Assembly: GCA_964357615.1 (NCBI GenBank)
Contig: CAYHMC010000003.1
Coordinates: forward strand, 34,678 to 98,677
Source: an uncultured Candidatus Saccharibacteria bacterium
GTDB taxonomy: Bacteria > Patescibacteriota > Minisyncoccia > UBA6257 > JACOXY01
Direction: 5' to 3'
DNA: 64,000 nt
In this document: positions 1 to 49,973 of the stretch, piece after piece
How the letters are laid out: each line of letters starts with the position of its first letter
How positions within the stretch are numbered: position 1 is the first letter of the stretch
Position numbers and translations under genes: made by a program
The notes under the pieces: model-generated
Told to the model about the DNA's origin: nothing
Database searches by the model: none
The model's input: the letters and a program-made list of their open reading frames with translations, nothing else

Positions 1-2
1 CA

Positions 3-4885: not shown

Positions 4886-4888
4886 AAC

Positions 4889-9920: not shown

Positions 9921-9971
9921 ATAGCTATTATATAACGAATAACAGCAATTTAGTTACAAAAAAAGACCGCC

Positions 9972-10124
9972 TCAGTTGTTCTGGGCGATCCGGTGAAGTT
10001 CGCGCTTTTCTTGTCTGCGGTCATAGCCGTGCTTTCCTTTCTTAGTGGAATGATATCCACCAGTTTGTCTTGGTAGTGGAACACGCATCATTGCAAGCGG
10101 ATTCTTTGCTTTTACTTTTTTCAC
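9972..10124 (-). CDS. Small basic protein (50 aa, GTG start), GC-rich cassette 1 gene A
   Basis: SD GAAGGAGG sits 4 nt before the GTG start. ORF is MKKVKAKNPLAMMRVPLPRQTGGYHSTKKGKHGYDRRQEKRELHRIAQNN. An intrinsic terminator (GATCGCC…GGCGGTC plus T7) follows the stop. Not in the ORF track (<60 aa). Confidence 0.4.
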   Translation of the reverse strand: MKKVKAKNPLAMMRVPLPRQTGGYHSTKKGKHGYDRRQEKRELHRIAQNN

Positions 10125-10459
10125 TTTTCCTCCTTCGGTAAGTCGTAGCTTTAGCGAAGGTTACCCTTCATTAGTTTTTCTACTAGCTATAGTCTCTCCC
10201 TTTCAAAATCCACATTTAAACATGAACTTTAAAAGAAGCCCGAGGGACAAAACAGAGATGCGATTTCTCTGATGTGTCACTCGGGGTATAAATCGCGCAG
10301 TCCGCATACTTGATTGCAATCAAGTAGTTGCGGTTGACAGTGGTTACCGTGTGAATCTTGCAAAATGCACACAGATGCCTCCACTGCCTAACTCCTCTCA
10401 TTTCATCGCAAGGGTTGGCACGGTTTGGATTGGCTGCGCAACCAACCACCCGTAGATTT

Positions 10460-10714
10460 CTATTTGCGACGCTTGCGACTCTTGCCACCGCCACTCTTCA
10501 ATCCTTGAACCATCATCTGGAAACCTACGTAGATGATCCCAAGAATCACCACGTAGTTCAAAATGTGCTCGAGGAGTGGAGTTATGTGGTTTACAGCCAC
10601 AATTCCAAGTCCCGGAACCACAGAGAGGAACACAAGGACGAGAAACCCAATCGTCCAGAGACCTCTGGGAGGAAAGAAAAGATATCTTCCCCATGCTTCG
10701 AAAAAATCTCTCAT
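10460..10714 (-). CDS. Small membrane protein (84 aa, two TM helices), cassette 1 gene B
   Basis: SD GAGGAG sits 8 nt before the ATG. Two hydrophobic helices and a basic C-terminus. GC-rich codon usage unlike the flanking genes. Confidence 0.45.
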   Translation of the reverse strand: MRDFFEAWGRYLFFPPRGLWTIGFLVLVFLSVVPGLGIVAVNHITPLLEHILNYVVILGIIYVGFQMMVQGLKSGGGKSRKRRK

Positions 10715-11064
10715 ACTCTTTTCTCCTCGCTCAAATTTTTATTTGAGCTGTTATTGGTTTTTGATGTGCTGTCATTGCTTCCTTTCAAAATATTTATTGA
10801 GTTAAATATTTTGAAAGGAACCCGAGAGAGTCGACCGGCAATTTCTTGCTCGGCTCGCTCCCTCGGGAAAACGGGTTTTTCTCCGGCTATAAACCCGAAA
10901 ACGGTTCTGCTTTTTTTTGAGTCCGAGAGGGGGATCGGCCCTTCACAGCTGGCTTCTGCCCTCTCGGTGGTAGGTTTTTGCTGAAAACCTTTCCCCAAAA
11001 CAGCGCGCGCAATCCAGGTCAGGCACCTGGGAGCAGGAAGGATTTGGAGTCGTTTAGCACTCCG

Positions 11065-11298
11065 TTATCCTGCTCGTTCGCTTTGAGTCCGGAATGGACC
11101 CCTCACCCGACCCGGGCGAGCAAGCCTATCGTCCTGAACGAATCGGCATGGCAGCGAACCGCCTACATTCTGCATCGAGTGGCCAAACTCGTATGCAGAC
11201 CTCTGCTGAACACATGGGATTTTCCCCTGTGACCCCGTACCCGGATGGCTGCGCGCGTCCATCTGTACAGGAATTAAGATTTTTCTTCGGTAAGCCAT
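11065..11298 (-). CDS. Questionable small ORF (77 aa), cassette 1 gene C; start lies inside the repeated leader element and has no SD
   Basis: Open frame in GC-rich DNA. The region is full of hairpins and may instead be non-coding. Confidence 0.2.
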   Translation of the reverse strand: MAYRRKILIPVQMDARSHPGTGSQGKIPCVQQRSAYEFGHSMQNVGGSLPCRFVQDDRLARPGRVRGPFRTQSERAG

Positions 11299-11578
11299 AG
11301 CTTTAAACGAAGGCTACCCTAATTTCTGTACAGATGATTTACATACCTACTTAAAAAATTTAGCGAAGAACTTTTCTGTTTCGTCCTGAGCTTGTCGAAG
11401 GACTCATCAGTACGAGCATACACTCGTAGACAGAAAGGAGTTTTAAGGTCTCCTTAAACCCTACGCTGTGGTCTCGCTCATGCTTATCAAAAAGTTTGGC
11501 TAGAACTTTTATGTTCTGCTAATGCAGAACTTTTGCATGAATCCCCACTTACGTCTGCGCAAACGGCCAGAGCAACCC

Positions 11579-11857
11579 TTAACCGATACTCAGGTCAAGT
11601 ATTTGTCCGACGTAATCCTTAACATCAACACCTTGCGGTGGAGCGCCAAGAACCACGTACAGACAACGGTCGCTGTAGGCGGATGACATAGCTCGGAAGT
11701 CTGCGCTAATATTCTTAGCCGCAAGCGTCCGACGCACATGCGCAATCCGCCTCTGGCAGGTAGGACAACCATCCGCTTCGGCTACTTCGAAAAGAATGTT
11801 GCCATTCTCCTCCAGTATCGAGCGCGGAGTTGCCCAGCCTTGCACGCGAACTTGCAT
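11579..11857 (-). CDS. Small CxxC (CPTC) protein, thioredoxin/glutaredoxin-like guess, cassette 1 gene D
   Basis: SD GGAGG sits 6 nt before the ATG, and a 7-bp hairpin (CCTCAGA…TCTGAGG) sits just 5' of the SD. The protein contains GCPTCQ. Confidence 0.4.
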   Translation of the reverse strand: MQVRVQGWATPRSILEENGNILFEVAEADGCPTCQRRIAHVRRTLAAKNISADFRAMSSAYSDRCLYVVLGAPPQGVDVKDYVGQILDLSIG

Positions 11858-12039
11858 AATTCACCTCCTTTCATGCCTCAGAGCCATCTGAGGGTTAGTT
11901 GTGAATTATAAATCCATTCTCGAAGAACTTTCAGAAAACAAAATGTTTTCCTGTTAAAACATTCCAATCTTGAAATGCTTTAACAGAAACCCGAATTTTG
12001 TCTCGGGCGGGACACTCGTTTTTCCGGATAACGAGAAAC

Positions 12040-12273
12040 CTACATCGCGAGCTGGGGCTCCTTACGAACTGGGAGTCCCAGCTGGGCGAGTTCGGCGCGA
12101 ACCTTTTGGACCAGCGGACGGTCCGGAAGATTCACTTGCAAGGTAGCTTTACAGCCCTTGCACTTGCCGACCTGACCCAAGAGAGCAAGACGAATGCCCT
12201 CTCGCGGTGAGCGATGCGGACGATTTCGATGTCCGCATTCCTCACAGTAAACATAGAATGGTTTAAAGAACAT
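12040..12273 (-). CDS. Small zinc-ribbon protein (CxxC…CxxC), cassette 1 gene E
   Basis: SD GGAGG sits 4 nt before the ATG. Cys pairs YCEECGH and KCKGCK are spaced 24 aa apart. Confidence 0.4.
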   Translation of the reverse strand: MFFKPFYVYCEECGHRNRPHRSPREGIRLALLGQVGKCKGCKATLQVNLPDRPLVQKVRAELAQLGLPVRKEPQLAM

Positions 12274-12629
12274 TCGACCTCCGATTTCAACCCTAACCTG
12301 CTATTTCTAGTCAGGATTTTACAGGGCGTGATTCCTTAAGGAGAGACCACAGCAAAAGTTCAAATTACTATTTATAACTATGCTAAACTTTTTTCTATGG
12401 CCTCCCCTAAAGGAGGCGGGAGAGATATGTTTAGGTCTGTTATTTTGTAGTTACGACCAATCATCATATCTGCACCCCATATTTATTTTCTGCGGTCATT
12501 ATACTCGATTTTTATGTATTTGTCAAGTGTCGGTGACAAACCGCTAAAATAAGCCTTATTTACTATATTTTATAAGAAAATTACTCTTTATTACTATGTC
12601 AAAATAGATAGACTTAGTTTTTAATATAC

Positions 12630-13822: not shown

Positions 13823-16800
13823 CTAATGACTTTTTAATCCCACCCACACATCGCTTTCTTCGATTTTAGTCTCTATTTCTGCATCAATTTTATTCGTGCG
13901 CTTTAAATTAAGTTTTGTAGCACCCACCTGCTTAATAAATTCTTCACTATGACGTTCAATAATACCTCCGAATTGCTTTGAATCTAAATAGATTTCTATT
14001 TTATTTTTTGGTTGCAATTCAGCTTTTTGTCTTAATTCTTGCACAAGCCTTATAAATTCTCGAAGTATTCCTTCTTCGCGAAGCTCAGGTGTAATTTTTG
14101 TATCTAATTCAACACTCACATCTTTAAGTGTGTCGGAAATTTTTATTTCTTTAACATTAATTTCTTCTTTCAGAATACTAATAAGTTCTTTTTCTTTTAC
14201 AATCTTCGAAGCATCAGATTTTTTAGAAATATAAAGAACCGAAAGTGGTTGTCTAACTTTTATTCCAGCCTCTGCGCGCTTCGCTAATGCTTCGGTTGCG
14301 AGAGATCGCACCCAATGCATATTTTCAAGCAAGTTATTATCAATATGTTTTTTACTTACCACTGGCCAATCCTCAATATGAATTGAATCTTTATGCTCCC
14401 CACTTAAATTCAAAGACTTATAGATTGATTCTCCAAAAAATGGAGCGAATGGGGCCATAAGTTTTGCAATTTCTAAAATTGCAAAGCCCAAAGTTGCCGA
14501 ACAATCCTTAAAATCATTATTATCTTCTGGCCTCTGGAGACGACGACGAGAACGCCTTATGTACCATCTTGATAAATTATCTATCAGTTCTTCAATTGCT
14601 TTTGCTGCATTGCCAACTTCATATTTTTCTAATTCTTCTGTAACTTTCAATATTGTTTTGTTTAAACTTGCCAAAATCCACTTATCTAAAATATGTTTTG
14701 ATTTTAAATTTTTAAATACAGGGATTGGACTCTTATCTGCGTACATTTCATAAAAAACAAAAGAATTATACAAAATATTAAAAACTCTATTTTGAACTTT
14801 TTTAATATCAATTTCATCAAAGTTTTTTGTTTCTCCTGGGGCATTGATTGTATAAAAATACCACCTAATAGCATCAACACCATATTTAGCAATTACATCC
14901 CAGGGATTTACAACATTGCCCTTAGACTTCGACATTTTTTGCCCAAATTTATCATTAATAAGTCCAAGACAAATCACATTTTTAAATGGTGGCTCTTTAT
15001 GTCCCAGTAGCGTCCCAACCGTAAGGAGCGTATAAAACCAACCGCGCGTTTGATCGATTGCTTCACAAATAAAATCAGCTGGGTATGGAAATTCTTTTAA
15101 TCCTAGTCGTCTATCGTCTTTAACCAATGGATTACTTTTTTTGTATTTATTATCAACTGCAAACGGATAATGGGCTGATGCAAGTGGCATTGCGCCAGAA
15201 TCAAACCAAACATCGGCAACTTCTTTTATTCGCATCATCTTTCCATTACACTTTTTACATTTTAATACTACTTCATCTATGAAGGGGCGGTGCATATCAA
15301 GCTCGCCCTGTGTGTTATATGGCCAATTATTTAATTTTACTTTACGCGACTCACCAACCCGAATATAATCCATAGCCAACATTTCTTCATTAGAAAAATT
15401 TTTCATAGCACCCTCCATCATCCACAGTGGATCTCCGTGACTAACTATTAGAATGCGCTTATTAACATGGAGCTTATTAATTTCTCTAATAAATCCAAAT
15501 ACTCTCTTTTTTATATCAGTTAAATTTTCTCCCCCAGGCGGTGTTTTTGTAAATTCTTCAGACGGTGAATCAAAGAAAGCTTTGTGTTCTTTGGTTGGTT
15601 TTTCATTGAATATTCCAGCATTTGCTTCTTCTATTCTTTTATCTACAATAACTTTTATATCTGATGCTTTTCCTATTTCTTTGGCTAGCTCTAGTGCGCG
15701 CTTATAGGGAGATGAATAAATCACATCAATTTTTCCCTTTAACTTTTTAGCAATTTCGATTGCTTCTTTTTTACCTTTTTCTGTAAGTGGTTCTATTTTC
15801 CCCTTTGGGCCAGATGCCACAATATCCTTAACATTGTGTAATGCTTCTGTATGGCGCTGTAGCATAAATTCATTACCATAATAATCATGCTCGTTTAACT
15901 CCGATAAACCTTGTATTACATTTTCAATTCCACAATCCTCACAAGACCAAACAGGAAGCGGTGTACCCCAATAACGCTGTCTTGAAATAGCCCAATCTTT
16001 TGCTTCTTTAATCCATTCTCCAAAACGCCCTTCTTTTATGTGCTCTGGTATCCAATTAATTTTTTTATTGGAAGATAGAAGTTGTGGTCGGAGCTTAGAA
16101 ACTTCTATAAACCATGCTGTTCTAGCAAAATAAATAAGCGGAGTAGAACATCTCCAGCAAAAAGGATATTCATGTTCTTGTTTCTCTGACTTATACATCA
16201 ATCCCCTTTTTTCTAAGTCAGCAATGATATCATTGTCTGCGCTTTTGATAAATTTATGCGCTCCTGGGAATCCAGCTACCATATTACCATCGTCATCAAC
16301 TGTCACTGGAATATTTTGATATGAAAAACTATCCACAGATGATTTAATCAAATTAAAATCATCGACACCAAAAGCTGGCGCGATATGAACAAAACCTGTG
16401 CCATCTTCTACTAAAACAAAATCAGCGCTATAGACGCGATAAGAATTATCGCTTGATAGCTTATTGTGCGAAGTTTTATACAATGGTTCGTATTCAAGAC
16501 CAATCAATTTTTTACCAGATATTTTCTCGACAGCTTCTATGCTGTAATCTTCTTTCGTGGGAGGAGGATTTATAGACCAAATATATTCCAGCTTAGCGCC
16601 AGTCGAAAAAGATTTTTTTATAGCGTACTTTGTATATGTAACTCCAGAATTAACTGCGATAGCAACATTAGCTGGAAGTGTCCATGGCGTTGTAGTCCAA
16701 ACCAATAAGTATTCGTTTGTTTTATTTTTTATTTTGAACTTTATGTAAATTGATGGGTCTTTAACTTTTTTATATACACCAGGTTGACCCAACTCATGAC

Positions 16801-17368
16801 TCGCTAAAACCGTTTGACACCTTGGACAATATGGAACAACTTTATAATCTTTGCGTAATAAACCTTTATTTGATATTTGCGACAAAACCCACCAAAGCGA
16901 TTCAATATAATAATTTTCATAAGTAGCATAGGCGTTTTTTAAATCCAACCAAAATCCTATACGATTAGTCATTTTTTCCCACTCATCTTTATATTTCCAA
17001 ACAACTTCTTTAGCTTTTTGATTAAATAATCCTATGCCGAACTGTTCAATATCTTTTTTGTTCTTAATTCCTAATTCTTTTTCAACTTCTATTTCCACGG
17101 GGAGGCCATGAGTATCCCAGCCAGCACGGCGCGGAACATAATAACCACGCATAGTTTTATATCTAAGTATAATATCTTTAAAAACACGGCCCAATATATG
17201 ATGAATACCTGGCCTTCCATTGGCTGTTGGAGGACCTTCGTAAAAAACAAATCTTTCTCCCTTCTCTTTGGTCTTTAAAGTTTTCTCGAAAATTTGATTC
17301 GTTTTCCAATATTCTAAGACTTTTTCTTCAATGTCTGCTAGTTTAAATTCTTTTAGATTTTTTAACAT
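13823..17368 (-). CDS. ileS: Isoleucyl-tRNA synthetase (type 2) carrying an inserted histidine-phosphatase-like domain
   Basis: PPTANG…IHHILG (HIGH region), the CP1 editing domain, KMSKS, and zinc knuckles WSCEDCG and CKKCNG. About 185 aa between the knuckles carry LQRHTE, SSPYKRALELA and IVSHGD (RHG / SHG phosphatase motifs). Confidence 0.9.
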   Translation of the reverse strand: MLKNLKEFKLADIEEKVLEYWKTNQIFEKTLKTKEKGERFVFYEGPPTANGRPGIHHILGRVFKDIILRYKTMRGYYVPRRAGWDTHGLPVEIEVEKELGIKNKKDIEQFGIGLFNQKAKEVVWKYKDEWEKMTNRIGFWLDLKNAYATYENYYIESLWWVLSQISNKGLLRKDYKVVPYCPRCQTVLASHELGQPGVYKKVKDPSIYIKFKIKNKTNEYLLVWTTTPWTLPANVAIAVNSGVTYTKYAIKKSFSTGAKLEYIWSINPPPTKEDYSIEAVEKISGKKLIGLEYEPLYKTSHNKLSSDNSYRVYSADFVLVEDGTGFVHIAPAFGVDDFNLIKSSVDSFSYQNIPVTVDDDGNMVAGFPGAHKFIKSADNDIIADLEKRGLMYKSEKQEHEYPFCWRCSTPLIYFARTAWFIEVSKLRPQLLSSNKKINWIPEHIKEGRFGEWIKEAKDWAISRQRYWGTPLPVWSCEDCGIENVIQGLSELNEHDYYGNEFMLQRHTEALHNVKDIVASGPKGKIEPLTEKGKKEAIEIAKKLKGKIDVIYSSPYKRALELAKEIGKASDIKVIVDKRIEEANAGIFNEKPTKEHKAFFDSPSEEFTKTPPGGENLTDIKKRVFGFIREINKLHVNKRILIVSHGDPLWMMEGAMKNFSNEEMLAMDYIRVGESRKVKLNNWPYNTQGELDMHRPFIDEVVLKCKKCNGKMMRIKEVADVWFDSGAMPLASAHYPFAVDNKYKKSNPLVKDDRRLGLKEFPYPADFICEAIDQTRGWFYTLLTVGTLLGHKEPPFKNVICLGLINDKFGQKMSKSKGNVVNPWDVIAKYGVDAIRWYFYTINAPGETKNFDEIDIKKVQNRVFNILYNSFVFYEMYADKSPIPVFKNLKSKHILDKWILASLNKTILKVTEELEKYEVGNAAKAIEELIDNLSRWYIRRSRRRLQRPEDNNDFKDCSATLGFAILEIAKLMAPFAPFFGESIYKSLNLSGEHKDSIHIEDWPVVSKKHIDNNLLENMHWVRSLATEALAKRAEAGIKVRQPLSVLYISKKSDASKIVKEKELISILKEEINVKEIKISDTLKDVSVELDTKITPELREEGILREFIRLVQELRQKAELQPKNKIEIYLDSKQFGGIIERHSEEFIKQVGATKLNLKRTNKIDAEIETKIEESDVWVGLKSH

Positions 17369-20660: not shown

Positions 20661-21317
20661 GTGAAATTCCAAGACCTCGTGCGAATAAATTTGGCAGCAA
20701 AATTTATTCATGAATCTAACTTAATTGAAGATGTTGATATTAAAATTGAGGCAATAAGAGAATGGATTAAAATGCGCTATAAACTTGGTCATGTAGGGGC
20801 ATTATTATTTTTAGAATATTGTCTAGATAAAGATATTCGTTTTAGCGAGATAGTTCTTTTTCAAATTCATAGATATATCATAGATGAACAAAACGAATAT
20901 TTTTCTGATATTTTAATTTCAGAAAATTTAATTGGTAAATATAGAAATAAACCGGTAAAAATTGGGACGCGCTTCGGACTTGATCATCGCTTAATCAGAG
21001 ACGAGATGGCTAAGCTAATTGAAAGAATTGAAAAATTTCAGCTTAAAGAAAAAAATAAAACAGGACTACTTAGAAAAAGCGACGAGCATGGTATCGTAGA
21101 AAAAATCGCCGATTTCCACTTTAGATACGAGCGCATTCATCCATTTATTGACGGTAACGGCAGAACTGGCAGACTTTTGGTTTGGTACTTGATGAAATTC
21201 GCAGGACTTAAACCTTTTATATTTACCTCACGCGACAAAGGACACACCTATTATGAAGCGTGTCGCTCGCAAAAATTAATGCGAGAATATTTTGCAACTC
21301 GAGCACTGTCAGCTTAA
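20661..21317 (+). CDS. Fic family protein (AMPylator-type)
   Basis: Core motif HPFIDGNGRTGRLL (HPFx[DE]GNGRxxR). Confidence 0.85.
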   Translation: MKFQDLVRINLAAKFIHESNLIEDVDIKIEAIREWIKMRYKLGHVGALLFLEYCLDKDIRFSEIVLFQIHRYIIDEQNEYFSDILISENLIGKYRNKPVKIGTRFGLDHRLIRDEMAKLIERIEKFQLKEKNKTGLLRKSDEHGIVEKIADFHFRYERIHPFIDGNGRTGRLLVWYLMKFAGLKPFIFTSRDKGHTYYEACRSQKLMREYFATRALSA

Positions 21318-21361: not shown

Positions 21362-22057
21362 TTAATCATGATGGTTGCTAAATTCTCTATATAAACAAAA
21401 TTCGCATCTTTTGTTTACTGGTGGTAATGGCTCTCGTAGTGTTAGGACGGCCTCTCGAAAAGTTTTTAGCACACTGTCTGGGTCTGTATTAACTTTATAA
21501 ATTGAAATATTAAACGCTAAGGGATTTTTAATATCCATATTCTTATGGTCCAGATACCAATAAACTAAATAAGCTATATTTTCAGTTTTAATATCATTCT
21601 CTCTTAAAAACAAAGCATATGCACTCATTTGATATGCATAAGATGGATGTGGCTCGCCAGGTGGAAAACCCTTTGTCTTGTTATCGAGTGGCACTATAGA
21701 CCCATCTTCAAGCTCTAATGCATCATCTAACATTCCCTGAAAGTAGGCGTTAGTTTCTTTATCTAAAATACCAAAAGTTCTCGAGCGAAATTTTGCAATA
21801 AGTGCCTCATTAGACAAAAGTTTTACTTTTATTTTTTTAAATTTTTCATCTAAAAACGGTGGGGAACCTCCATTTTTTCTAAAATAATCAAAATAGTTTT
21901 TAAGCGTATAGTCCACTCCATTTGGGAGCGTTGACATAGGTCCAGATGGGCGCTTTATTTCTTCGTTAAACTGAAGCCAAAAACATCTCGAACAATCTCG
22001 ATAGAGAGAAAGGGATGAAGGAGATAATTTTATTAAACCAGCTTTTGATTTTGACAT
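21362..22057 (-). CDS. PD-(D/E)xK nuclease, Cas4/RecB-like with four-Cys cluster
   Basis: N-terminal CSRC and C-terminal CEFC give four Cys, as in Cas4/AddB Fe-S nucleases. Also a QxxxY motif (YQMSAY) and D/E-K residues. Confidence 0.5.
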   Translation of the reverse strand: MSKSKAGLIKLSPSSLSLYRDCSRCFWLQFNEEIKRPSGPMSTLPNGVDYTLKNYFDYFRKNGGSPPFLDEKFKKIKVKLLSNEALIAKFRSRTFGILDKETNAYFQGMLDDALELEDGSIVPLDNKTKGFPPGEPHPSYAYQMSAYALFLRENDIKTENIAYLVYWYLDHKNMDIKNPLAFNISIYKVNTDPDSVLKTFREAVLTLREPLPPVNKRCEFCLYREFSNHHD

Positions 22058-22117: not shown

Positions 22118-22579
22118 ATGATGCAAGATAAAACAGGAAACATTTTAAGCATAAACAAAAAAGCTTCATTTGATTATGAAATCATTGAAACATATGTGGC
22201 TGGCGTGCAACTTTTAGGATTTGAGGTTAAGTCTATTCGAAAAGGATCAGCGTCTTTAATTGGCGCTTTTGTTGTAGTTCGTGGTGGTGAAGTATATTTG
22301 CTAAACGCCAATATTCCCCCATATCAATCAAACAATTCTCCAAAAGATTATGAATCAACCCGTAGCAGAAAACTACTTCTCAAGAAATCAGAAATTGCTG
22401 AGTTAATTGGTAAAACAGAAAAGACTGGCTTGACACTTGTGCCACTTAAGTTGTATAATATGGGCAGTAGAATTAAGTTACAAATCGGCTTAGCGCGCAA
22501 TAAAAAGAAACATGACAAACGTGCTTCCATAAAGAAGAAAGATGTTGAGCGCGAAGTTGGGCGTAGACTTAAAGGATAA
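22118..22579 (+). CDS. smpB: SsrA-binding protein
   Basis: Typical SmpB sequence (KKASFDYEIIETYVAGVQLLGFEVKSIRKG…). The tmRNA gene follows immediately. Confidence 0.9.
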   Translation: MMQDKTGNILSINKKASFDYEIIETYVAGVQLLGFEVKSIRKGSASLIGAFVVVRGGEVYLLNANIPPYQSNNSPKDYESTRSRKLLLKKSEIAELIGKTEKTGLTLVPLKLYNMGSRIKLQIGLARNKKKHDKRASIKKKDVEREVGRRLKG

Positions 22580-22583: not shown

Positions 22584-22931
22584 GGGGATGAAAGGCCTCG
22601 ACAGGCTACTAACCTTAAAAATTGCAAGCAGAGATGTGAAATCTCTTAAAACATTCACAAAAGAATAAGTGCAAACTCATTCAACAAACAACCGGCCTTA
22701 GCATTTGCATAAGACCCATCGACGCTACTTACGCCTAATCGGTTGATCGTCGGTGTTAAATTATTAGGCTCTGTTCCCTACTCCTGCGGAGGGAATGAAT
22801 ATTGAGCGGGAAAGTGTTGTGTGCTTGGCCTCCTGGCACTTGGCACATGACACTTAAAATAATGTCAGGATAAGCTTGTAGATATTTTTAATTTTACGGC
22901 CTGGACGGCGGTTCAAATCCGCCCATCTCCA
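22584..22931 (+). ncRNA. ssrA: tmRNA (SsrA)
   Basis: 5' GGGGATGAAAGGCCTCGACAGG. Tag reading frame GCA AAC TCA TTC AAC AAA CAA CCG GCC TTA GCA TTT GCA TAA gives ANSFNKQPALAFA. 3' tRNA-like end GGCGGTTCAAATCCGCCCATCTCCA. Confidence 0.85.
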
Positions 22932-22943
22932 CAAACTAAAAGA

Positions 22944-31895: not shown

Positions 31896-34415
31896 TTAAT
31901 TTTCTGTTTTACTAAAAATAAATTTATCACCAAGAACTTGAACTTCAACATTATCAGCTTTGGAAATTTTGCCCAATAAAAGCTGATTCGCTAATTCTCC
32001 GCGCAATTTCTCCTCAATGGCTCTACGAAGTGGTCTCGCTCCAAATGTTTTTGTAAACCCAATTTTAGTAATAGCTTCAATAGATTCTGGTGAGAATGTT
32101 AGTGTAATCTCCTGAGCTTCTAAAATATCATCTGCTAATTCCTTAAGCTGTAAAATTGCAACTTTTTTCATATCTGCCATACCAAGCGGTTCAAAAATTA
32201 TTATATCTGAAAATCTATTTATAAGTTCTGGTTTAAAATAATCAACGAGGTGTTTTTTTACTTCATCTTTAATGTCTTCAGATTTTTTGCCAGTCTCTAA
32301 TGCTTCTATAATAAATTGCGAATGAGCATTTGAAGTAGCTACGATTATCGTGTTTTCAAAATTAGCTATTCGTCCAAGTCCGTCGGTCAAGCGACCCTCG
32401 TCTAAAACTTGTAAAAAAAGATTTAGTATGTCTTTTTCAGCTTTTTCGAATTCATCAAGCAAAACAAGAGCATATGGCTTCGACCGAATTGCATCAGTTA
32501 AAGATCCTGTTATGGCTCCATCAGAAGACCCAATAAATCTCGTTAAACTTCCTTTTTCTTGAAATTCTGACATATCAAAGCGGACCATCATGTCTTTTGA
32601 ACCAAATTGCAGTTCAGCAAGAATTTTAGAAAGTTCAGTTTTGCCAACTCCAGTTGGGCCGACAAACAAGAAAGATGCTATTGGCCCTCCTTTTCTAGTT
32701 AGTCCACTTCTATACTCTCTAAGCACCCTAGAAACAGAAGACACCGCTTCTTCTTGATTGATGTAATTTTTGTGAATCCTTTCTTCTAAATGCAGAAGCT
32801 CTTTGCTTTCTTCACCACCAACTTTGTGGATAGGAATATTAACGCGCCTCTCGGCTATTTTAATTATTATATCAGCGGTAACAGCTTTTTCACGCAATCT
32901 TGCTGCCTCCGCTATTGATTCTCTAAGCAAATCTTCTGCGCTTCCAGGCAGTGGTCTATCTCTAAAATATTTATGAGCCAAAGTAACAGCTTCTTTTATG
33001 GCACCCAAGGTTACAATTACTCCATATTGTTTTTCAAGCGACAAAGCTGCAAAAGTAAGATAGTTAAGCGCATCTTCTTCAATTATTTCAGCAACAGTTA
33101 TTACATCGAAAATTGATTTGAAATCTCCTCGATTTTCAATATATTTTTTATAAGCTTGAGGAGTTGTAGTTCCTATAACCGGAAATAATCCTTCGCGTAA
33201 TACTGGCAATAAAGTATCTACGACATTTAAAAGTCCCCCCTCTGATGTTCTAGCAAGCATATCCATTTGTGGAATATAGAGAATTATATTGCCGGCCGTA
33301 ATAATTTCTTCAACTAATTTTTGCATTCGTCCTTGTGCCGCATGAGGATCAAGACCAGCGATAGCACTTTCAATTCGAAGCTCTACCAAACGCTTATCAA
33401 AGAGAATTGGTGGAACCTTATCTTTTGTTATGTTAAACGCCAAATGGCGTATAAGAGAGTCTTTTCCGTTGCCAGTATCTCCCACAAGCAATGCGGCTGG
33501 ATTGCCAGGCCTCGAAAGCACATCAAGCAAACGACCATACTCATCCTTGTGACCAATTAAAAATCCCAAAGCGCCAGCATATGCGAGATCAGTTAAATCG
33601 TCTCCATGGTCACCAAGTAGGGGCGTAGGACGAGCAGTCCACGCCCTATTCATTGTTCGATGCCTAACTCGCCTTGCATAAACTCCCCCCAGCTCCCTCG
33701 GTCTTACTAATCGAGACAGCACATTAGTTCGTGCGTGACTGAAAATTAATGCCGTACGAAGATAGGCAGGTTCTAACGAAAAAAGTGATAATAATTTTTT
33801 TATGCTAGCGTCATCGACATCAAAAAGGCCAGCCACTAAAGCATGCGCTTCGATATAGTGCTCATTGCTTAGCCGACTCTCGCTATAAGCACCGAAAACA
33901 ATTTTTTCGATTAACTGCAAAATTGCATCTTTGTTATAATCTGAATTTTTAGAGAATAGGCGCTCTGCCTCACCTAAAAACTCAGAATAATTTATTTCCA
34001 TGCGAATAAACACATCTTGAATTTCTTTTAGTGCAAATAACTTTTTTAAAAGCACAAACTTAAAATCATCACCGCTTATAGTAGCGCGATCAAATGCGGA
34101 TTCCAAAATAGCAAAAGCTTTTGGAGAAAGCGAATCTGTTAGATTGTACCTTGTCCCAGCAGGAATGTAGTCTAAAGAGCGATTACCTTTTGTAAAGTGA
34201 AAAAGCTGATGCAAAAGCATTAATAAGAACAACACACCAAGCCAAAAAACATGTGCATTAGAAGAAAGTAAAAGAGCGAAAGCAAGCATCGCAAATACAA
34301 TAAATCCACCAAATCTGAAAAACCTAACAAACATCCTTCCGGGAGCAGTCATATAAAGCCTTGGGTCATCAAAATAAAAAATTGTCTCCTCTTTGTTTTG
34401 CATTTTATTAAACAA
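31896..34415 (-). CDS. ClpA/B/C-family AAA+ protein, N-terminal two-TM anchor, degenerate D1 and intact D2
   Basis: D2 has Walker A VGPTGVGKTELS and Walker B LVLLDEFEKA. D1 has GDTGNGKDS and ILYIPQMD in place of hhhhDE. Hydrophobic helices at aa 35-75, then Clp_N-like repeats. Confidence 0.7.
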   Translation of the reverse strand: MFNKMQNKEETIFYFDDPRLYMTAPGRMFVRFFRFGGFIVFAMLAFALLLSSNAHVFWLGVLFLLMLLHQLFHFTKGNRSLDYIPAGTRYNLTDSLSPKAFAILESAFDRATISGDDFKFVLLKKLFALKEIQDVFIRMEINYSEFLGEAERLFSKNSDYNKDAILQLIEKIVFGAYSESRLSNEHYIEAHALVAGLFDVDDASIKKLLSLFSLEPAYLRTALIFSHARTNVLSRLVRPRELGGVYARRVRHRTMNRAWTARPTPLLGDHGDDLTDLAYAGALGFLIGHKDEYGRLLDVLSRPGNPAALLVGDTGNGKDSLIRHLAFNITKDKVPPILFDKRLVELRIESAIAGLDPHAAQGRMQKLVEEIITAGNIILYIPQMDMLARTSEGGLLNVVDTLLPVLREGLFPVIGTTTPQAYKKYIENRGDFKSIFDVITVAEIIEEDALNYLTFAALSLEKQYGVIVTLGAIKEAVTLAHKYFRDRPLPGSAEDLLRESIAEAARLREKAVTADIIIKIAERRVNIPIHKVGGEESKELLHLEERIHKNYINQEEAVSSVSRVLREYRSGLTRKGGPIASFLFVGPTGVGKTELSKILAELQFGSKDMMVRFDMSEFQEKGSLTRFIGSSDGAITGSLTDAIRSKPYALVLLDEFEKAEKDILNLFLQVLDEGRLTDGLGRIANFENTIIVATSNAHSQFIIEALETGKKSEDIKDEVKKHLVDYFKPELINRFSDIIIFEPLGMADMKKVAILQLKELADDILEAQEITLTFSPESIEAITKIGFTKTFGARPLRRAIEEKLRGELANQLLLGKISKADNVEVQVLGDKFIFSKTEN

Positions 34416-34752
34416 ATACCTTATATACTATAAATACGGGAACAAGGGCCCACAAGATACAAAAAGCCACGGCAATCACAATAACCACAATATAAAATAA
34501 GCCACCGAAAAGTAGTCTAAATGACCTAAAAAAGAATCCGAGTATGTAACCAACTATACTTCTGTCTTGAAAAAGTGGTTTCCCAAAATATCGAAGAGTA
34601 ATTCTAAATGCAATAATTCTATCAAGTTCGACTAAAAAATCTATTAGGTGCCCACTAAACATTCGATATCCTCCCACATACCAATGCGTAAAAAACTCTA
34701 ATATTTCATTTAGAGTTTGTTTAAATATGTATATTAAAGCAAATTCAGTCAC
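34408..34752 (-). CDS. Small membrane protein (114 aa)
   Basis: Two TM helices; overlaps the clp start by 8 nt. Confidence 0.35.
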   Translation of the reverse strand: MTEFALIYIFKQTLNEILEFFTHWYVGGYRMFSGHLIDFLVELDRIIAFRITLRYFGKPLFQDRSIVGYILGFFFRSFRLLFGGLFYIVVIVIAVAFCILWALVPVFIVYKVFV

Positions 34753-34808
34753 AATTTAATTATAAACCAATGTGCGATTATAAGCTAAGGCGTTTATCAA
34801 TGTAAAAC

Positions 34809-35448: not shown

Positions 35449-37161
35449 TTACAAACTATTACTCATCAAAGCAAGATCGTGTTTTTTGAGCTTATCCAAA
35501 TGTTCGAATCCATCGTCTTTCTTTATAGACTGCGCAATCTGAAGACCTCCTATAAAGTGGGGTAAAATTACATAATGGGCTCCCATCTTATAAAGATCTT
35601 TTGCTTCCCATTCATTCTCTGCGGTTAAAATTGAAATGGCTTTTGGATTCTCATTTCTAATATAGTCGAGTAGGTGCATATTATCGTTAAAATCTGGGAT
35701 TGTAGATATTACAACTCTAGCCAGGTGCAATACTGCAATTTCTTTGATTTCATCTTCTTCAATATCACCATATATAATTGGTTCACCGCGTTTTTTATAT
35801 TTTTCAATTACCAGCGGATCAAAGTCAACTAACACATAGGGTTCTTCTATTGATTTAAGCGCATTCAATATATTTGCACCCATTCTATGAACGCCCAAAA
35901 GAACTATGTGATTTGCATATGGCACAGGTGTAGAACTTGATAACTTTTCCAATTTCCCGCCTTTAAATTCCAGCCACTTAAGACTTGGTCGCAAATAAGC
36001 ATACAAGGAATCTCCGTGAAGAATAAGGTATGAGGAAATGGTAATTGTTATCACGCCGACAAGAGTTACAAGCGACACATCAGTATCTGAAAGATGTCCG
36101 AGCCCCTTACCCATAGAAGCAATAATTAAACTAAATTCTGAAATCTGAGCAACGGTTAAGCTGGCCAAAAAAGCCGTCCGCAAACGATATCCCAAAAAAG
36201 ACATAATTAAAATCACTATAAGTGGGTTGCCAACTAGAACAAACAAAGAAAGAATTAATGTTTCAAAAATTATGGCGCTGATATTTTCAAAAACTAACTG
36301 TGAACCCAAAAGAACAAAAAACAACATGATAAAAAAATCGCGCATCGGCCTAATGCGACTCGCAAGCTGTGCATGTTGTACAGAACTTGCAAGTGATATA
36401 CCAGCAAGAAATCCACCAATTTCGTAAGAAAACCCAATGAATGGCGAGGCCATAAGCGCGGCAAGCCCCAATCCCCAAGCGTTTCCAAAGGCGAATAAAA
36501 GCTCCTGTGATTTACCTAAGAAATCGAGCACTCTTGGAAAAACATATTTAGAAAGAATGAGTGATACTAAAATAAGCGCGCCACCCTTAACAAGGGACAT
36601 TGTAAAAATACCAACCGTATATGTTATTGAAGCACTTTCTTCAATGCGTGATAATCCCGAAAGAAATATAAGCGCAAGTAAAGCAATAAAATCTTGAACC
36701 AATAAAAATCCCACGACTATCTTTCCGTACAAACTTCCTAAATCTTTTTTTTGTGATAATAACTGGATAATTATAATAGTTGATGAAAGCGTAAGTGCTA
36801 TTGAAATATAAATTGCTGGAATGATACCAACGCTAAGAGCTTTTAAAATAATTACGCCAATAACAAAAGTACAAACAACTTGACCTAAGGCAGTCCAAAG
36901 TGCAGGCTTTCCGATTTCTCTTAAGCTACTCCAATTCATCTCAAGCCCTACTAAAAAAAGCAGGAATGCAATTCCAAGGTGCGAAAATACATTCATGTAT
37001 TCATGAAAATTTTCAGAAACTAACCCAGCTTTAATTAAAGTTGCCAAAAAAATACCAGCAAAAAGATAACCAACTAATGTTGGTTGCTTTAAGTAATGAG
37101 CAACAAATCCAAAAACAGCCGCCAATACAATTATTAATGCTAATTCAGAAAAAGGATCCAT
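35449..37161 (-). CDS. CPA2 cation:proton antiporter with C-terminal TrkA-N (KefB/C-like)
   Basis: About 12 TM helices, then a Rossmann region HIVLLGVHRMGANI (GxGxxG) in the cytoplasmic domain. Confidence 0.8.
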   Translation of the reverse strand: MDPFSELALIIVLAAVFGFVAHYLKQPTLVGYLFAGIFLATLIKAGLVSENFHEYMNVFSHLGIAFLLFLVGLEMNWSSLREIGKPALWTALGQVVCTFVIGVIILKALSVGIIPAIYISIALTLSSTIIIIQLLSQKKDLGSLYGKIVVGFLLVQDFIALLALIFLSGLSRIEESASITYTVGIFTMSLVKGGALILVSLILSKYVFPRVLDFLGKSQELLFAFGNAWGLGLAALMASPFIGFSYEIGGFLAGISLASSVQHAQLASRIRPMRDFFIMLFFVLLGSQLVFENISAIIFETLILSLFVLVGNPLIVILIMSFLGYRLRTAFLASLTVAQISEFSLIIASMGKGLGHLSDTDVSLVTLVGVITITISSYLILHGDSLYAYLRPSLKWLEFKGGKLEKLSSSTPVPYANHIVLLGVHRMGANILNALKSIEEPYVLVDFDPLVIEKYKKRGEPIIYGDIEEDEIKEIAVLHLARVVISTIPDFNDNMHLLDYIRNENPKAISILTAENEWEAKDLYKMGAHYVILPHFIGGLQIAQSIKKDDGFEHLDKLKKHDLALMSNSL

Positions 37162-37582: not shown

Positions 37583-38812
37583 TTATTTAGTTGACTTAGC
37601 TGTGATTACAAAAAGAGCAATTAGTACGATAGCTGCGAAACCAATACCAAGCCAAGGCAACCAAGGATACTGTTCTGTTATCCGGCTCTCCTCTTTATCA
37701 CACACATTCCCTATCTTATCTCCATCAACATCCGCCTGATCTGAATTGGGCAAATCTTTACAGTTATCTTTGATATTAATAATTCCGTCTCTATCAAAAT
37801 CATCACAGGCATCACCCCTACCATTTCTGTCTATATCAACTTGATCAAAATTGCTAAGCGACACGCAATTATCATAAATATCTGAGATATTATCCTTATC
37901 AGTATCAGAAAGCGTATAAGTTGGATTGCTCATGGTCGGCAAAGTAGCAAGCTTAAGCACTCCTTCGTTATTAGACAAATTTCCAGCCTCTCCAGTTACG
38001 TGATAAACTCTTCTATCAGAATCAAAGTAAATTCGATAAGTTGTGTTTGGGCTGGCTAAAAACCTTAGCCCTCTAGAAATTGTTTTTGATACATTTTCTT
38101 CTTCTAATCTAAGCTCTGATATTCGAAGCGGCTGTGAATAAGTTAAATTTATACGCCAAGAATTTGATGTTGTCTTTGGAAATTGTATCGACTGTCGACT
38201 CATACTACGCTTAGCAACAATAATTTTATCAAAAACGCCTACATTGGCTCTTATTTCAATCGATGTTGGCAATGCAACATTATTATCTAGGAGCACCGTC
38301 AAAGCCGAGCTTGTAATCGGCTCAGAACTTTTGAGCGCTATGGACACCGTTCCAACTGCATTTTCTGGAAGCATAAATTCTGAAAATGTATTTACGTTAT
38401 TATCAACCATTAAATTTGCACTTGAAATATCTAAAGACGATTCAGCCGTGACTGGTATTTTTTGAATTAGAATATCATTTTTAAGATACGATGGTTCAAA
38501 TTTATTTTCTGTTTCATTAAAAACTGCAAAATCAAGACGCTCCAAAAAATCGTTTTCAATTGGAACTTCAACCACAGTTGGGACATTTATTTTTAGGATT
38601 TTGCATGAGCTCTCCGTTATTGGATACTCTAAAAGACAGGCTTTGTAGCCAATATTATCTATTTTTTTATATTTTCTGAAGGCTGTAAAAATTTCTATTG
38701 TGCCTGAATTTGGTGCATCTTGTGCAAATACTAAATTGGCTAAGCTGAAAATACATGCCACCATAATCAAACTTGCTCTTTTCTTTTTTTGATTTGACAT
38801 TAGTATTTTCAA
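37583..38812 (-). CDS. Secreted protein with thrombospondin type-3-like calcium-binding repeats and C-terminal TM anchor
   Basis: Repeated DxDxDGxxD segments ([14 protein letters not shown]…[26 protein letters not shown]…[12 protein letters not shown]). Signal peptide present. Confidence 0.6.
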
Positions 38813-40690
38813 TTAACCATTAAGAATATTCTTATTTTTATTTGCTCTTCCAAGAAATGCGGTGCTGATGAGTAATGCTCCAATTAAGAAAAAGGTTGCG
38901 GTTCTGATAGGTAATTCCATTTGCCAAACATCAACCAGTAGCAACCTACCTATCACAAAAGCCAAAAGCGCTCCTCCATAAGTAAGCATACCTTTTACTG
39001 CATTTGTTCGACCATAAAAATATGCCATAAGACCAACGATTGTATAAGCAACAAGCGAAATCATTACCGCAGCTTGAGCCCAATCTTTAAAAACAATGTG
39101 AAGCGAAAGCCAAATTAGCGCAAAAACATAGATAGAACTAAGGACGAGGGAGATTATGGTTAGAGATGATTGCGGTATTTTTTCTTTTTCGCTAGCTAGA
39201 TAGAAAAATGCACCAATGCCAAAGAGAGAAAGGGCGAGCATTAAAAGCACAAAAAAGTGTGTATTTAATATGCTGTTATGCCACTCATATAAATCTAGAC
39301 TTCCAAAAGACATAAGTATCGGCCCAATAATAAGAAATGAAAGAGCTTCGCTCTCTTCTCTCCTGCGCAAGACAACATAAGAAATAATTGGGATAAGCGC
39401 GCTTTCTATCGTGTAGGCTATTGTAAGTACAGCTCCATCTAGCTCAGCTGCAGTTGCAGCGGCAAGCATTGCAATACTTACGCCCAAATAGATATAAAAT
39501 GGTTCGCGTCTACCAGTTGCCCTAAAAATACTAAATCCACCGGCAGCGAAAACAACCATCCATGCTGAGATTATTAAGCTTCTCCACTCGGTTGACGCAG
39601 CAGACCAAATCCACAAAAGAAGCAGTAGACCATTTATTGATGCGGTAACAAGATCTGATGTAATTGATTTATCCTGAACCTTTAGAGCTCCTAAAGTGTG
39701 CGAAACATAAAATATTCCAGAGAACGCATATATAAAAAGCAAAACAACTTGAGGATCAGCTCCGCTGTATCCATTCAAATCTGGCAAACTATATAATCCA
39801 ACCATCATTAATCCTGCCGTAATAAGCTCTCTCCACCCCCTAAGTGCAGCTACCCAAAGAGTTCCAATAACAACAACCAGCAAATATGAATATAGTCCTA
39901 TGTGAGTTGTATCAGTCGAATTTGTAAGTAGCGGAGCAAAACCAGCCAAAATTAAACTTGAAAATGCTAAACTGCGACTCTGGTAGCGAACCGAAGCAAA
40001 CGCAACAAGCGCAGTGCTCATAAACATAATTACAAGCGCAGATAAAGGATCGAAAAAATTATAAAGTTGTCGCGCTGCAAATGTAGTTAGTAAAATTACA
40101 GTTGAACCCAAAACAATAAAAGTACCACCTTGATTTAGGTATTTGTTTATTCTCCAAAAACCCAGAATCATAATTAATGCTCCAGAAACAAGACCTAATG
40201 AAATTCGGCCCATCTCACCAATCCAGTCGTTTAATATGGCATAAGTGACAAACCATCCAAAACCAAGAAGAATTAGGAATGCGCCGAGCTTTAAAAGCCA
40301 ATCATCTTTTAGCCATTCAAAAAATCGCCCACTCCAATCCGATTCTGATTCATAAGAACTTGGCATCATTGAATCTCTATCCTGATCTTTATGAAAGTGA
40401 GATGTATAAGGTGCTGGTGGTAAATTTCCTGTTGTACCCAAATTACTGCTTGCCTCGCCAGAAACAAAAACACCTTCATCTTTCTTAAGATTACTCATCT
40501 GTTCTTTGATTTCTCTTCTAGAAAGTTTGTCGATTTGATTTTCTAGATTTCTAACACGCTCCCCAAGTTTTCCAATACGAATAAAAGTAATTATAGGAGC
40601 AACAAAAACAAAAAAGACAATTAAGCCACCGAAGAAAAGTAATGAATCCATCCCGTTAGAAGCAGATCGCGATAAAGATAACGCGATCAA
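38813..40690 (-). CDS. Large polytopic membrane protein (DUF2339-like), N-terminal coiled coil
   Basis: More than 14 predicted TM helices. Abuts the upstream TSP3 gene with no gap. Confidence 0.45.
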   Translation of the reverse strand: MIALSLSRSASNGMDSLLFFGGLIVFFVFVAPIITFIRIGKLGERVRNLENQIDKLSRREIKEQMSNLKKDEGVFVSGEASSNLGTTGNLPPAPYTSHFHKDQDRDSMMPSSYESESDWSGRFFEWLKDDWLLKLGAFLILLGFGWFVTYAILNDWIGEMGRISLGLVSGALIMILGFWRINKYLNQGGTFIVLGSTVILLTTFAARQLYNFFDPLSALVIMFMSTALVAFASVRYQSRSLAFSSLILAGFAPLLTNSTDTTHIGLYSYLLVVVIGTLWVAALRGWRELITAGLMMVGLYSLPDLNGYSGADPQVVLLFIYAFSGIFYVSHTLGALKVQDKSITSDLVTASINGLLLLLWIWSAASTEWRSLIISAWMVVFAAGGFSIFRATGRREPFYIYLGVSIAMLAAATAAELDGAVLTIAYTIESALIPIISYVVLRRREESEALSFLIIGPILMSFGSLDLYEWHNSILNTHFFVLLMLALSLFGIGAFFYLASEKEKIPQSSLTIISLVLSSIYVFALIWLSLHIVFKDWAQAAVMISLVAYTIVGLMAYFYGRTNAVKGMLTYGGALLAFVIGRLLLVDVWQMELPIRTATFFLIGALLISTAFLGRANKNKNILNG

Positions 40691-48611: not shown

Positions 48612-49973
48612 TCACAACTCAACCACTTGATTTATTTTAGGCATCTCCGCATCAATATTAAACTCAGTTTTAATTTTAGAAATCAACATTTCAGCTTGAT
48701 CCGGTTCACCCATACAAGTAAAAACATATTTCAGATTTTTTTTGGCATGACTTAACCATTCGATTAATCTTGGTTGATCAGCATGAGCTGAATAACCACC
48801 TATTGCCACAACTCTACAATTCACAGGAACTTCCTCGTCAAATATTCTAACACTAAAAGGTACGCTTTTTTTAGATTCCTCTAAAATACGCCGACCAAGT
48901 GAGCCAATTGCCTGGTAACCAATAAATAGAAGTGTGTTATTTGCATCTTGCAAATATCTTCTTGCGTGATGAATCATTCTGCCTCCCTGCATCATTCCAG
49001 AACCAGCAATAATAATTTTGGGATTTGGTGTGTTATTTATTTCTTTGGATTGTTCAGTTTGAAGCGTAGTATGAAGTCCGGGGAAATTAAAAATTTTATC
49101 TCCGCTCTCTATTAGCTTGCGTGCTTCATCGTTAAAATAAGAATCATATTTTCTATAAATCGTAGTTAGTTTAATTGCAAGAGGGCTATCTAAATAAACT
49201 GAAATGCGGGGTATTTTATTATTTTCAATCAAGTCATTTAACTGATACAAGATATCCTGAGTGCGCTCCATTGCAAAAGTTGGAATCATTAATATTCCTT
49301 TTTTTGCAATTGTCTCCTCTATTATTTTTTCAAGTTTTTCTTTTTTAAGCTCAGTTGGCTCATGAACTCTACCGCCATACGTAGATTCAATAAGAACATA
49401 ATCCACGTCATTAATAAATTCAGTTTGTTTAATAATTGGTGCGGGATAATTACCAAGGTCACCAGTAAAAGCAATTTTCTTTCCCTCTGCTTCTACTAAA
49501 TAAATTGCCGAGCCTAGTATGTGGCCAGCGTCATAAGCAGTAACTCGAACATCGCCAATAGAAACTGTTTTATGATATGGAATTCCTTCCCAAAGCTTCA
49601 TTAAAGAAATAACATTGTCGGTATTATAAAGTTCTTCCTGTTTGAGTCTATCAGTCTCTCTTTTCATTATGTGCTCTGAATCTAAAAGCAACAGCTCAGC
49701 AACATCTCGAGTGGCTTCCGTGGAATATACCTTATTTTTAAATCCTGCCCTTACCAATTTAGGCAACCTACCGGTATGATCGATGTGGGCGTGAGTTACG
49801 AACACGGCATCAATTTCAGATGGGTCATAAGGAAAAGGATTGCAGTTGATTTCATCGCAAAAACCTATGCCTTGGCGCAACCCACAATCAATTAAAATTT
49901 TCTTTCCGCTTGTTTCGAGTAAAAAATTTGAACCGGTTACTGTTTCTGTCCCTCCAAAAAAATGTAATTTCAT
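48612..49973 (-). CDS. MBL-fold beta-CASP nuclease (CPSF/RNase J-like RNA-metabolising hydrolase)
   Basis: VFVTHAHIDHTG (HxHxDH) followed by beta-CASP and a C-terminal RNA-specificity region. Confidence 0.75.
   Translation of the reverse strand: MKLHFFGGTETVTGSNFLLETSGKKILIDCGLRQGIGFCDEINCNPFPYDPSEIDAVFVTHAHIDHTGRLPKLVRAGFKNKVYSTEATRDVAELLLLDSEHIMKRETDRLKQEELYNTDNVISLMKLWEGIPYHKTVSIGDVRVTAYDAGHILGSAIYLVEAEGKKIAFTGDLGNYPAPIIKQTEFINDVDYVLIESTYGGRVHEPTELKKEKLEKIIEETIAKKGILMIPTFAMERTQDILYQLNDLIENNKIPRISVYLDSPLAIKLTTIYRKYDSYFNDEARKLIESGDKIFNFPGLHTTLQTEQSKEINNTPNPKIIIAGSGMMQGGRMIHHARRYLQDANNTLLFIGYQAIGSLGRRILEESKKSVPFSVRIFDEEVPVNCRVVAIGGYSAHADQPRLIEWLSHAKKNLKYVFTCMGEPDQAEMLISKIKTEFNIDAEMPKINQVVEL

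Follow-up and report, generated by a model that had tools for sequence, protein, structure and literature searches.

To our knowledge, every Hsp100 ATPase studied so far grips its substrate with pore-loop tyrosines. The subject of the present analysis is an open reading frame (ORF) in a 64-kb stretch of contig CAYHMC010000003.1 (64,000 nucleotides, referred to below as the window), which encodes a double-ring AAA+ ATPase of the Hsp100/Clp type, together with the small gene directly upstream of it, whose product is called the partner here. The ATPase belongs to a family of Patescibacteria proteins in which the first ring (D1) appears to be catalytically dead, the second ring (D2) retains its ATPase site, the pore loops of both rings are devoid of aromatic residues and the N-terminus carries a predicted membrane hairpin. 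In a search of the full-text literature, neither a membrane-anchored Hsp100/Clp ATPase nor this family was found to have been described.

Several described systems resemble the ATPase in part. The best sequence match is to ClpB/Hsp104, which shares with it the D2 module and D2-small domain, a ClpB-type helical segment and, probably, a Clp_N-like N-domain. However, the Patescibacteria ATPase has neither an M-domain nor pore-loop tyrosines, its D1 appears dead, and it has a hairpin and a membrane partner; without a coiled-coil M-domain, coupling to DnaK is not expected. With ClpA/ClpC it shares the N-domain/D1/D2 layout without a long M-domain, ClpC being the top structural match, but it differs from them in the absence of both the IGL/VGF docking tripeptide and GYVG, in its apparently dead D1 and in its predicted membrane anchor. 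FtsH is likewise a bacterial AAA+ machine with two N-terminal membrane helices, whose entry face looks at the membrane; FtsH, however, has a single classic-clade AAA module with an aromatic pore loop, its two helices are separated by a periplasmic domain and it is fused to an M41 zinc protease, whereas the Patescibacteria ATPase has two Hsp100-type modules, a loop of 5 residues between its helices and no protease domain (no Peptidase_M41 match in Pfam and no HEXXH motif).

Degenerate rings and absent aromatic residues have precedents elsewhere in the superfamily. In NSF (D2) and Pex1/Pex6 (D1) a degenerate ring is kept as a structural scaffold while the other ring works, and Torsin, which needs a membrane partner, has no aromatic residues in its pore loops; these proteins belong to other AAA+ clades and are eukaryotic, and their partner proteins showed no homology to the one described here. 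In function, the role proposed below comes closest to that of Msp1/ATAD1, described as an N-terminally anchored AAA+ hexamer that pulls proteins from the bilayer without a protease (PMC12793716). Msp1 is nevertheless eukaryotic; it has one transmembrane (TM) helix, its only AAA module is of the classic clade and its pore loops are aromatic, and there is no sequence relationship beyond the AAA+ fold. Finally, HSP101 of the Plasmodium PTEX complex is an Hsp100/ClpB-type hexamer that works at a membrane with membrane proteins, among them EXP2 (PMC7355975). HSP101 is itself soluble, with active rings and pore-loop tyrosines, and docks on the pore with its exit (D2) face, whereas the Patescibacteria ATPase would be tethered by its N-terminal (D1) side.

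The ORF can be read from TTG 34415, which is merely the first possible start; ATG 34403 (MQNKEETIFYFDDPRL) agrees with the N-termini of the homologues and is likely the true start, so that the protein is probably 835 residues long. Its membership of the Clp/Hsp100 family, as proposed by the earlier sequence-only reading, is borne out by Pfam matches to AAA_2 (residues 578-737, E 1.6e-50), ClpB_D2-small (744-825, E 1e-17) and AAA_lid_9 (447-514, in D1), and by the ClpB, ClpA and ClpC proteins that head the comparisons with PDB and NCBIfam; no above-threshold Pfam match to Clp_N, and none to AAA in the first module, was obtained. In NCBIfam the ranking is ClpB (439 bits), ClpA (393), then ClpK, ClpG and ClpV, all far under the curated cut-offs (439 against 1232 bits for the ClpB equivalog TIGR03346, 362 against 1417 for PRK10865 and 393 against 993 for the ClpA model TIGR02639). 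Among PDB sequences (phmmer), T. thermophilus ClpB (351 bits) and E. coli ClpB come first, followed by ClpC and ClpA. The alignment with ClpB, in which D1 alone scores 92 bits, falls into two pieces (ATPase residues 265-531 for D1 and 495-830 for D2) that omit ClpB positions of approximately 417-505, i.e. the M-domain, while ClpA aligns in a single continuous stretch (ATPase 273-825 to ClpA 175-733); an M-domain is therefore taken to be absent. The AlphaFold2 model built on the family alignment (mean predicted local distance difference test, pLDDT, 86.7; predicted template modelling score, pTM, 0.76) is also without a long coiled coil, and its best Foldseek matches are ClpC, ClpC1, ClpB and ClpA, with ClpC on top and some of them being ClpC-ClpP complexes. 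As judged from fold and from D2, the protein is thus a two-tier Hsp100/Clp AAA+ ATPase with an N-region/D1/D2 layout and no coiled-coil M-domain.

Two sets of relatives were available for comparison. A search covering 5.8 billion proteins gave 120 listed homologues (47-86% identity, lengths mostly 820-866 residues), which cover 97-100% of the query in 118 of 120 cases, the exceptions being P0016 (a 618-residue fragment, 70%) and P0084 (95%). A scan of GTDB species genomes with the linker motif [HR]RxMNRAWT, from which 80 loci were kept, matched 228 species, and the second set consists of 77 full-length genome copies retrieved in this way. All species matched in the scan are represented by Patescibacteria-type metagenome-assembled genomes (MAGs), and the listed homologues come from Patescibacteria only (Parcubacteria, Lipton-, Brenner-, Harrison- and Wolfebacteria, and Minisyncoccia); several of the matching MAGs are labelled ‘uncultured Candidatus Saccharibacteria’, which is not trusted as a fine assignment. 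When the N-terminal 262 residues were used as a profile, 148 cluster representatives were found at E<=1e-30 among 1.84 billion, and the full-length ones are all 804-851 residues long with the module at the N-terminus. The hairpin recurs in both sets of relatives, and so does the dead D1, with the consensus GxxGxGKE and hhhhPD and with no arginine fingers. Mean pairwise identity varies along the protein, from 0.74 in the large domain of D2 and 0.58 in that of D1 to 0.36 in the hairpin and 0.35 in the Clp_N-like region.

Aligned by phmmer with the ClpB proteins of T. thermophilus and E. coli, D1 shows no gaps within the motifs concerned: GDTGNGKDS stands opposite GEPGVGKTA at Walker A, ILYIPQMD opposite ILFIDELH at Walker B, AGLDPHA opposite AGAKYRG at the pore loop and DFKSIFD (family consensus DFASAFE) opposite ALERRFQ at the arginine fingers. 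The family as a whole has lost the Mg-coordinating Thr of Walker A (replaced by Asp or Glu), the Walker B DE (now PQ or PD), both arginine fingers and the pore-loop Tyr, while the P-loop Lys is kept, and there is no exception among the 77 genome copies, in which the Walker A and B motifs of D2 are invariant. The sequence-only reading had noted the Asp in Walker A and the Walker B position without DE, and had concluded that D1 is probably inactive; both points stand, since alignment and family columns agree and realignment restores no hidden Walker residue. Misaligned Walker motifs are ruled out as an explanation on the same grounds. D1 therefore appears to have lost all the elements required for hydrolysis and substrate gripping, and to be catalytically dead; as the P-loop Lys is retained, it may still bind nucleotide. 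Its conservation at 0.58 identity points to strong purifying selection, as would be expected of a scaffold and not of a decaying domain.

D2, by contrast, keeps a complete ATPase site, with segments G586-T593, L652-E655, T694-N696, N733-R734 and G792-R794 invariant in the family, and pore loop 2 as well as the overall ClpB-like D2 are well conserved. The earlier description of D2 as canonical is thus correct for Walker A and B, sensor 1, the arginine finger and sensor 2, but does not extend to pore loop 1, so that D2 would be canonical only as an ATPase. Specifically, GSSDGAI----TG stands opposite ClpB GAPPGYVGYEEGG, with no tyrosine and four residues deleted, and the family consensus is GSPDG-x-[IVTM]-x-G where ClpB has GYVG, the Tyr-equivalent position being variable (K/S/T/A/R). 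No aromatic residue occurs at either pore-loop position (KYR in D1, GYVG in D2) in 121 and 78 sequences.

A ClpP partner, for which a search had been suggested at the outset, is unlikely on these sequences because the (I/V)G(F/L) docking tripeptide is absent from residues 697-725 (AHSQFIIEALETGKKSEDIKDEV), because these residues align gaplessly with the helical segment of ClpB (they are helical in the AlphaFold2 model, 699-723), and because no ClpP-like motif occurs in the window; motifs of FtsH (HE[AGS]GH[AT]) and Lon were not found within it either. Public pipelines label the homologues ‘ATP-dependent Clp protease ATP-binding subunit (ClpC)’, a name that is probably misleading for this family.

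The N-terminal region sets the family apart from the Hsp100 proteins compared above. Hydropathy (Kyte-Doolittle maximum of 2.25 over 19 residues), two AlphaFold2 helices (24-49 and 54-72, pLDDT 90-97) and conserved charge-free segments with basic flanks all agree with the two hydrophobic helices, and hence the membrane anchor, that had been read from the sequence. Across 119 homologues the hairpin segments are nearly charge-free, and their flanks carry 3.6 and 3.2 Lys+Arg per sequence; these counts and the short loop are consistent with a hairpin whose two ends are cytoplasmic, which is the predicted orientation. A mis-called upstream start, the obvious artefact to consider, is ruled out as the source of the hairpin because the YFDDPRL motif ahead of it is conserved in homologues that span 97-100% of the query. 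In the model a short strand within this motif (12-14) pairs with residues 89-91.

Behind the hairpin lies a region for which Clp_N-like repeats had been proposed, and these are probably real but very divergent. Sequence support is weak, as Pfam Clp_N remains sub-threshold (E 0.08 in the query, and E<=1 in 6 of 27 family members), but a profile of the N-terminal region of the ATPase matches almost exclusively Clp N-domains in the PDB (ClpC, ClpA, ClpC1 and ClpB; best E 4.6e-4, ranging to about 0.03, profile positions of approximately 94-223), and the model places eight helices between 98 and 228, as expected of Clp_N. The following segment (238-259) is disordered in the model and runs into the stretch RHRxMNRAWTARPTP, which is the best conserved one outside the ATPase sites, strongly basic and with N256, R257, W259 and T264 invariant. 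Its conservation in the 77 genome copies is there by construction, since they were retrieved with it, but it is equally invariant in the 120 independently retrieved homologues. An invariant linker in a disordered region suggests an interaction motif.

The partner is the second conserved component. Its stop codon (34408-34410) lies 4 nt ahead of ATG 34403, and its product consists of a long helix (2-47), a basic juxtamembrane stretch (48-82) and a TM segment (83-108) that is charge-free and preceded by 5.3 Lys+Arg; the predicted topology is N-in and single-pass, with a basic N-terminal part of about 80 residues in the cytoplasm. The AlphaFold2 model consists of two long helices (pLDDT 86). Homologues of the partner precede the ATPase in three unrelated loci (38-51% identity), and in a wider comparison, for which 85 loci were fetched, a partner is present in 83 of the 84 with an ATPase ORF, the exception having no upstream sequence; in 80 of the 84 the two genes are immediate neighbours that share a strand, often with overlapping or abutting reading frames. 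The partner family comprises at least 572 proteins of 110-144 residues (mostly 113-120), all of them annotated as ‘hypothetical’. Pfam yields no match to it beyond scattered sub-threshold ones, Foldseek finds nothing below E 2 in the PDB and PADLOC has no match to the partner.

Further out, 44 of 73 loci have a family-4 uracil-DNA glycosylase (UDG) gene upstream of the pair. Genes for PolX and for NUDIX follow downstream, each in no fewer than 20 loci (a minimum, as downstream sequence is limited), and L20/L35/IF3 genes are also found there, so that the wider synteny is common without being universal. A functional link to the UDG, PolX and NUDIX genes was considered and is not used as evidence, given that UDG is found in just those 44 loci and that the block represents general conserved gene order; the conserved unit is the two-gene pair of ATPase and partner. 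In a related 899-kb Patescibacteria contig, positions 1-5494 of the retrieved locus (L001) hold a serine recombinase, a helix-turn-helix protein, GmrSD_N, a restriction enzyme of the MvaI/BcnI type and an N6/N4 methyltransferase, a mobile or defence island inserted beside the UDG/partner/ATPase block on its upstream side.

Taken together, these features are best read as those of a remodelling machine that is tethered to the membrane and driven by D2. Together with its partner, it would act on clients embedded in the membrane or close to it and would hand nothing over to a protease, a reading to which a probability of roughly 0.55 is given. We infer hexamer formation, membrane insertion and a role for the partner. 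In the hexamer, D1 would be a structural scaffold ring and D2 the sole motor, while the hairpin would keep the D1 face, along with the Clp_N-like domain, near the inner surface of the membrane. The N-terminal anchor would then turn the conventional entry face to the bilayer, as in FtsH and Msp1, which makes membrane-embedded or membrane-proximal clients the most likely ones to be remodelled, extracted or disassembled. The partner, and perhaps also the RHRxMNRAWTARPTP linker, may serve as an adaptor, regulator or client-binding element. The output would be remodelling, neither ClpP hand-over nor DnaK-coupled disaggregation, and since the tyrosine staircase is absent, the grip on the substrate would have to differ from canonical Hsp100 threading.

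Several points weigh against this reading. Specifically, (i) the lack of an aromatic pore-loop residue in both rings argues against the classical polypeptide threading that an extraction model needs, (ii) the second hydrophobic core of the hairpin is short (13-16 residues), so that the hairpin could be monotopic or re-entrant instead of fully spanning, and (iii) the adjacency of the two genes reveals that they are functionally linked, but not in what way.

If the reading is correct, this would be a membrane-tethered Hsp100 with one ring silenced, both tyrosines dropped, the ClpP and DnaK interfaces lost and a dedicated membrane partner gained. The ATPase is kept in hundreds of Patescibacteria species despite their extreme genome reduction, and such retention points to an important and distinct handling of membrane-associated clients in organisms that are attached to other cells. 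For AAA+ researchers it would also offer a natural variant, D1-dead and Tyr-less, with which to probe what the remaining elements do. A bolder version is put forward only tentatively: the family might represent an unrecognised class of membrane-integrated Hsp100 proteins, near-universal in Paceibacteria-type Patescibacteria, in which D1 is a pseudo-ATPase that serves as scaffold, D2 is a motor devoid of aromatic paddles, the hairpin helices form a ring and the single-pass partner is obligate. Such a machine would extract or remodel membrane clients or move a non-protein polymer, with a grip unlike the tyrosine staircase of all studied Clp/Hsp100 proteins.

The principal rival, on balance unlikely but deserving attention, is an ATP-driven switch or assembly factor that does not thread at all, in which D2 cycling would reshape the hairpin ring and the partner and so regulate or assemble a membrane complex. 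The pore loops fit such a protein, because there is no aromatic residue in either ring and the variability of the Tyr-equivalent position in D2 implies that it is not under selection for grip; a dedicated membrane partner and an invariant but disordered linker that suggests a binding interface fit it too, and comparable working is found in Torsin with LAP1/LULL1 and in AAA+ scaffolds with inactive rings. However, pore loop 2 and the ClpB-like character of D2 are preserved, and so, probably, is the Clp_N-like domain, which in other Clp ATPases is a module for binding substrates or adaptors.

A quite improbable alternative is a translocase or exporter for something other than polypeptides, in which 12 helices from the hairpins and 6 from the partners would together make a membrane conduit in line with the AAA+ channel, and a basic, non-aromatic pore would move nucleic acid or another polymer, or push cargo across the membrane. 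Polar or basic residues take the place of aromatic ones at the pore-loop positions, the strongly basic linker contains an invariant Trp, and AAA+ rings of the RuvB clade are able to move DNA; the nearest parallel is the coupling of Hsp101 to the EXP2 pore in PTEX. Nevertheless, the N-terminal anchor puts the D1 entry side at the membrane, which is the wrong polarity for the usual D1-to-D2 export, and the hairpin, with its loop of about 5 residues, has no evident pore-lining polar residues. The repair genes around the pair (UDG, PolX and NUDIX) would also suit this alternative, but their synteny is partial and shared with ribosomal genes, and therefore probably reflects mere conserved gene order.

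An ordinary soluble unfoldase of the ClpC/ClpA type that feeds ClpP, with a hydrophobic N-terminus derived from a mis-called start and D1 motifs derived from misalignment, would agree with the pipeline names and with the ClpC-ClpP complexes among the best Foldseek matches, but is extremely improbable in view of the conserved N-terminus before the hairpin, the homologue coverage, the gapless D1 alignment, the ClpB-type helical segment EALETGKKSEDIKDEV at the site of the docking tripeptide and scores far under every NCBIfam equivalog cut-off. Equally hard to credit is a pseudogene in decay, or a component of anti-phage defence with a ClpB-like ATPase (such as DolB/Dodola or PDC-M37): the PADLOC models PDC-M37B (E 2e-33) and DolB (E 3e-26) do match residues 529-813, but only within the generic D2 module, with no match in the partner, the pair is surrounded in many species by housekeeping genes in conserved order (UDG, NUDIX, L20/L35/IF3) and not by variable islands, and the reading frame is intact, with AAA modules that are 58-74% identical.

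Table 1. Positions of the ATPase, its parts, the partner gene and the candidate promoter in the window (residue numbers are those of the ATPase).
Feature	Residues	Position	Strand	Basis or remark
Hsp100/Clp-type double-ring AAA+ ATPase ORF		31896..34415	(-)	839 codons; likely start ATG 34403
N-terminal motif YFDDPRLxMTxxGRxxVR, conserved, predicted cytoplasmic	8-31	34323..34394	(-)	Family alignment, AlphaFold2
Predicted membrane hairpin, two hydrophobic helices and a loop of ~5 residues	32-72	34200..34322	(-)	Hydropathy, AlphaFold2, family charge counts
Putative divergent Clp_N-like domain, eight helices	90-230	33726..34148	(-)	Profile matches, AlphaFold2
Invariant linker motif RHRxMNRAWTARPTP	251-265	33621..33665	(-)	Disordered in the monomer model
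D1 AAA+ module, degenerate yet well conserved, D2 directly after	266-530	32826..33620	(-)	Alignment, family columns
D1 Walker A GDTGNGKDS	312-320	33456..33482	(-)	Lys retained, Asp in place of Thr; GEPGSGKET in the family consensus
D1 Walker B position IILYIPQMD	377-385	33261..33287	(-)	DE replaced by PQ; family consensus ILYIPDIHN
D2 AAA+ large domain	545-742	32190..32783	(-)	Walker A GPTGVGKT, Walker B LLDEFEK, sensor-1 TSN, arginine finger NRF
D2 pore loop 1, GSSDGAITGSLT	629-640	32496..32531	(-)	No aromatic residue; 4-residue deletion relative to ClpB GAPPGYVGYEEGGQLT
D2 small domain (ClpB_D2-small)	743-830	31926..32189	(-)	Sensor-2 GARPLRR
Partner gene, 114-residue single-pass membrane protein		34408..34752	(-)	ORF directly upstream of the ATPase
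Best sigma-70-like promoter match TTTACA-18-TATAAT, 11/12		34777..34806	(-)	In the 56 nt that precede the partner gene; agreement with the consensus only, as such sites are no more numerous in the region than in shuffles

Other features of the window are of separate interest. Beyond the partner gene lies a Kef-type Na/H exchanger with TrkA_N (35449-37161), and upstream of it, at 37583-40690 (-), the gene of a protein of 409 residues with thrombospondin type 3 repeats, either secreted or anchored, adjoins that of a multi-pass DUF2339 membrane protein (625 residues). Two metallo-beta-lactamase RNases of the beta-CASP type are encoded at 1811-3742 (+) and 48612-49973 (-); one of these proteins is an RNase J whose N-terminal extension (about 100 residues) is basic and of low complexity, and the other is a beta-CASP/RMMBL protein of 453 residues.

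The SmpB gene (22118-22579, +) is directly followed by that of the transfer-messenger RNA (tmRNA; 22584-22932), whose tag peptide ANSFNKQPALAFA ends in LAFA and not in LAA; no protease for degradation of the tag (ClpXP, Lon or FtsH) is visible in the window. Just upstream of smpB, a Fic/DOC family protein (20661-21317, +) adjoins a PD-(D/E)XK nuclease (21362-22057, -). A class I aminoacyl-tRNA synthetase of 1181 residues (13823-17368, -), probably an isoleucyl-tRNA synthetase as judged by eye, contains an unusual insertion, a histidine-phosphatase domain (His_Phos_1, residues 502-664, E 7.5e-27) placed between the halves of the catalytic domain. Finally, a GC-rich stretch of about 2.4 kb (9950-12350; 0.42-0.56 against a background of about 0.34) is without convincing ORFs and may encode a large non-coding RNA or else represent an element of mobile or viroid-like type; inside it, at 11373-11436 (-), lies a match resembling a type III hammerhead ribozyme, with a score of 44.6 bits (gathering score 48.5) and E 8.7e-8.

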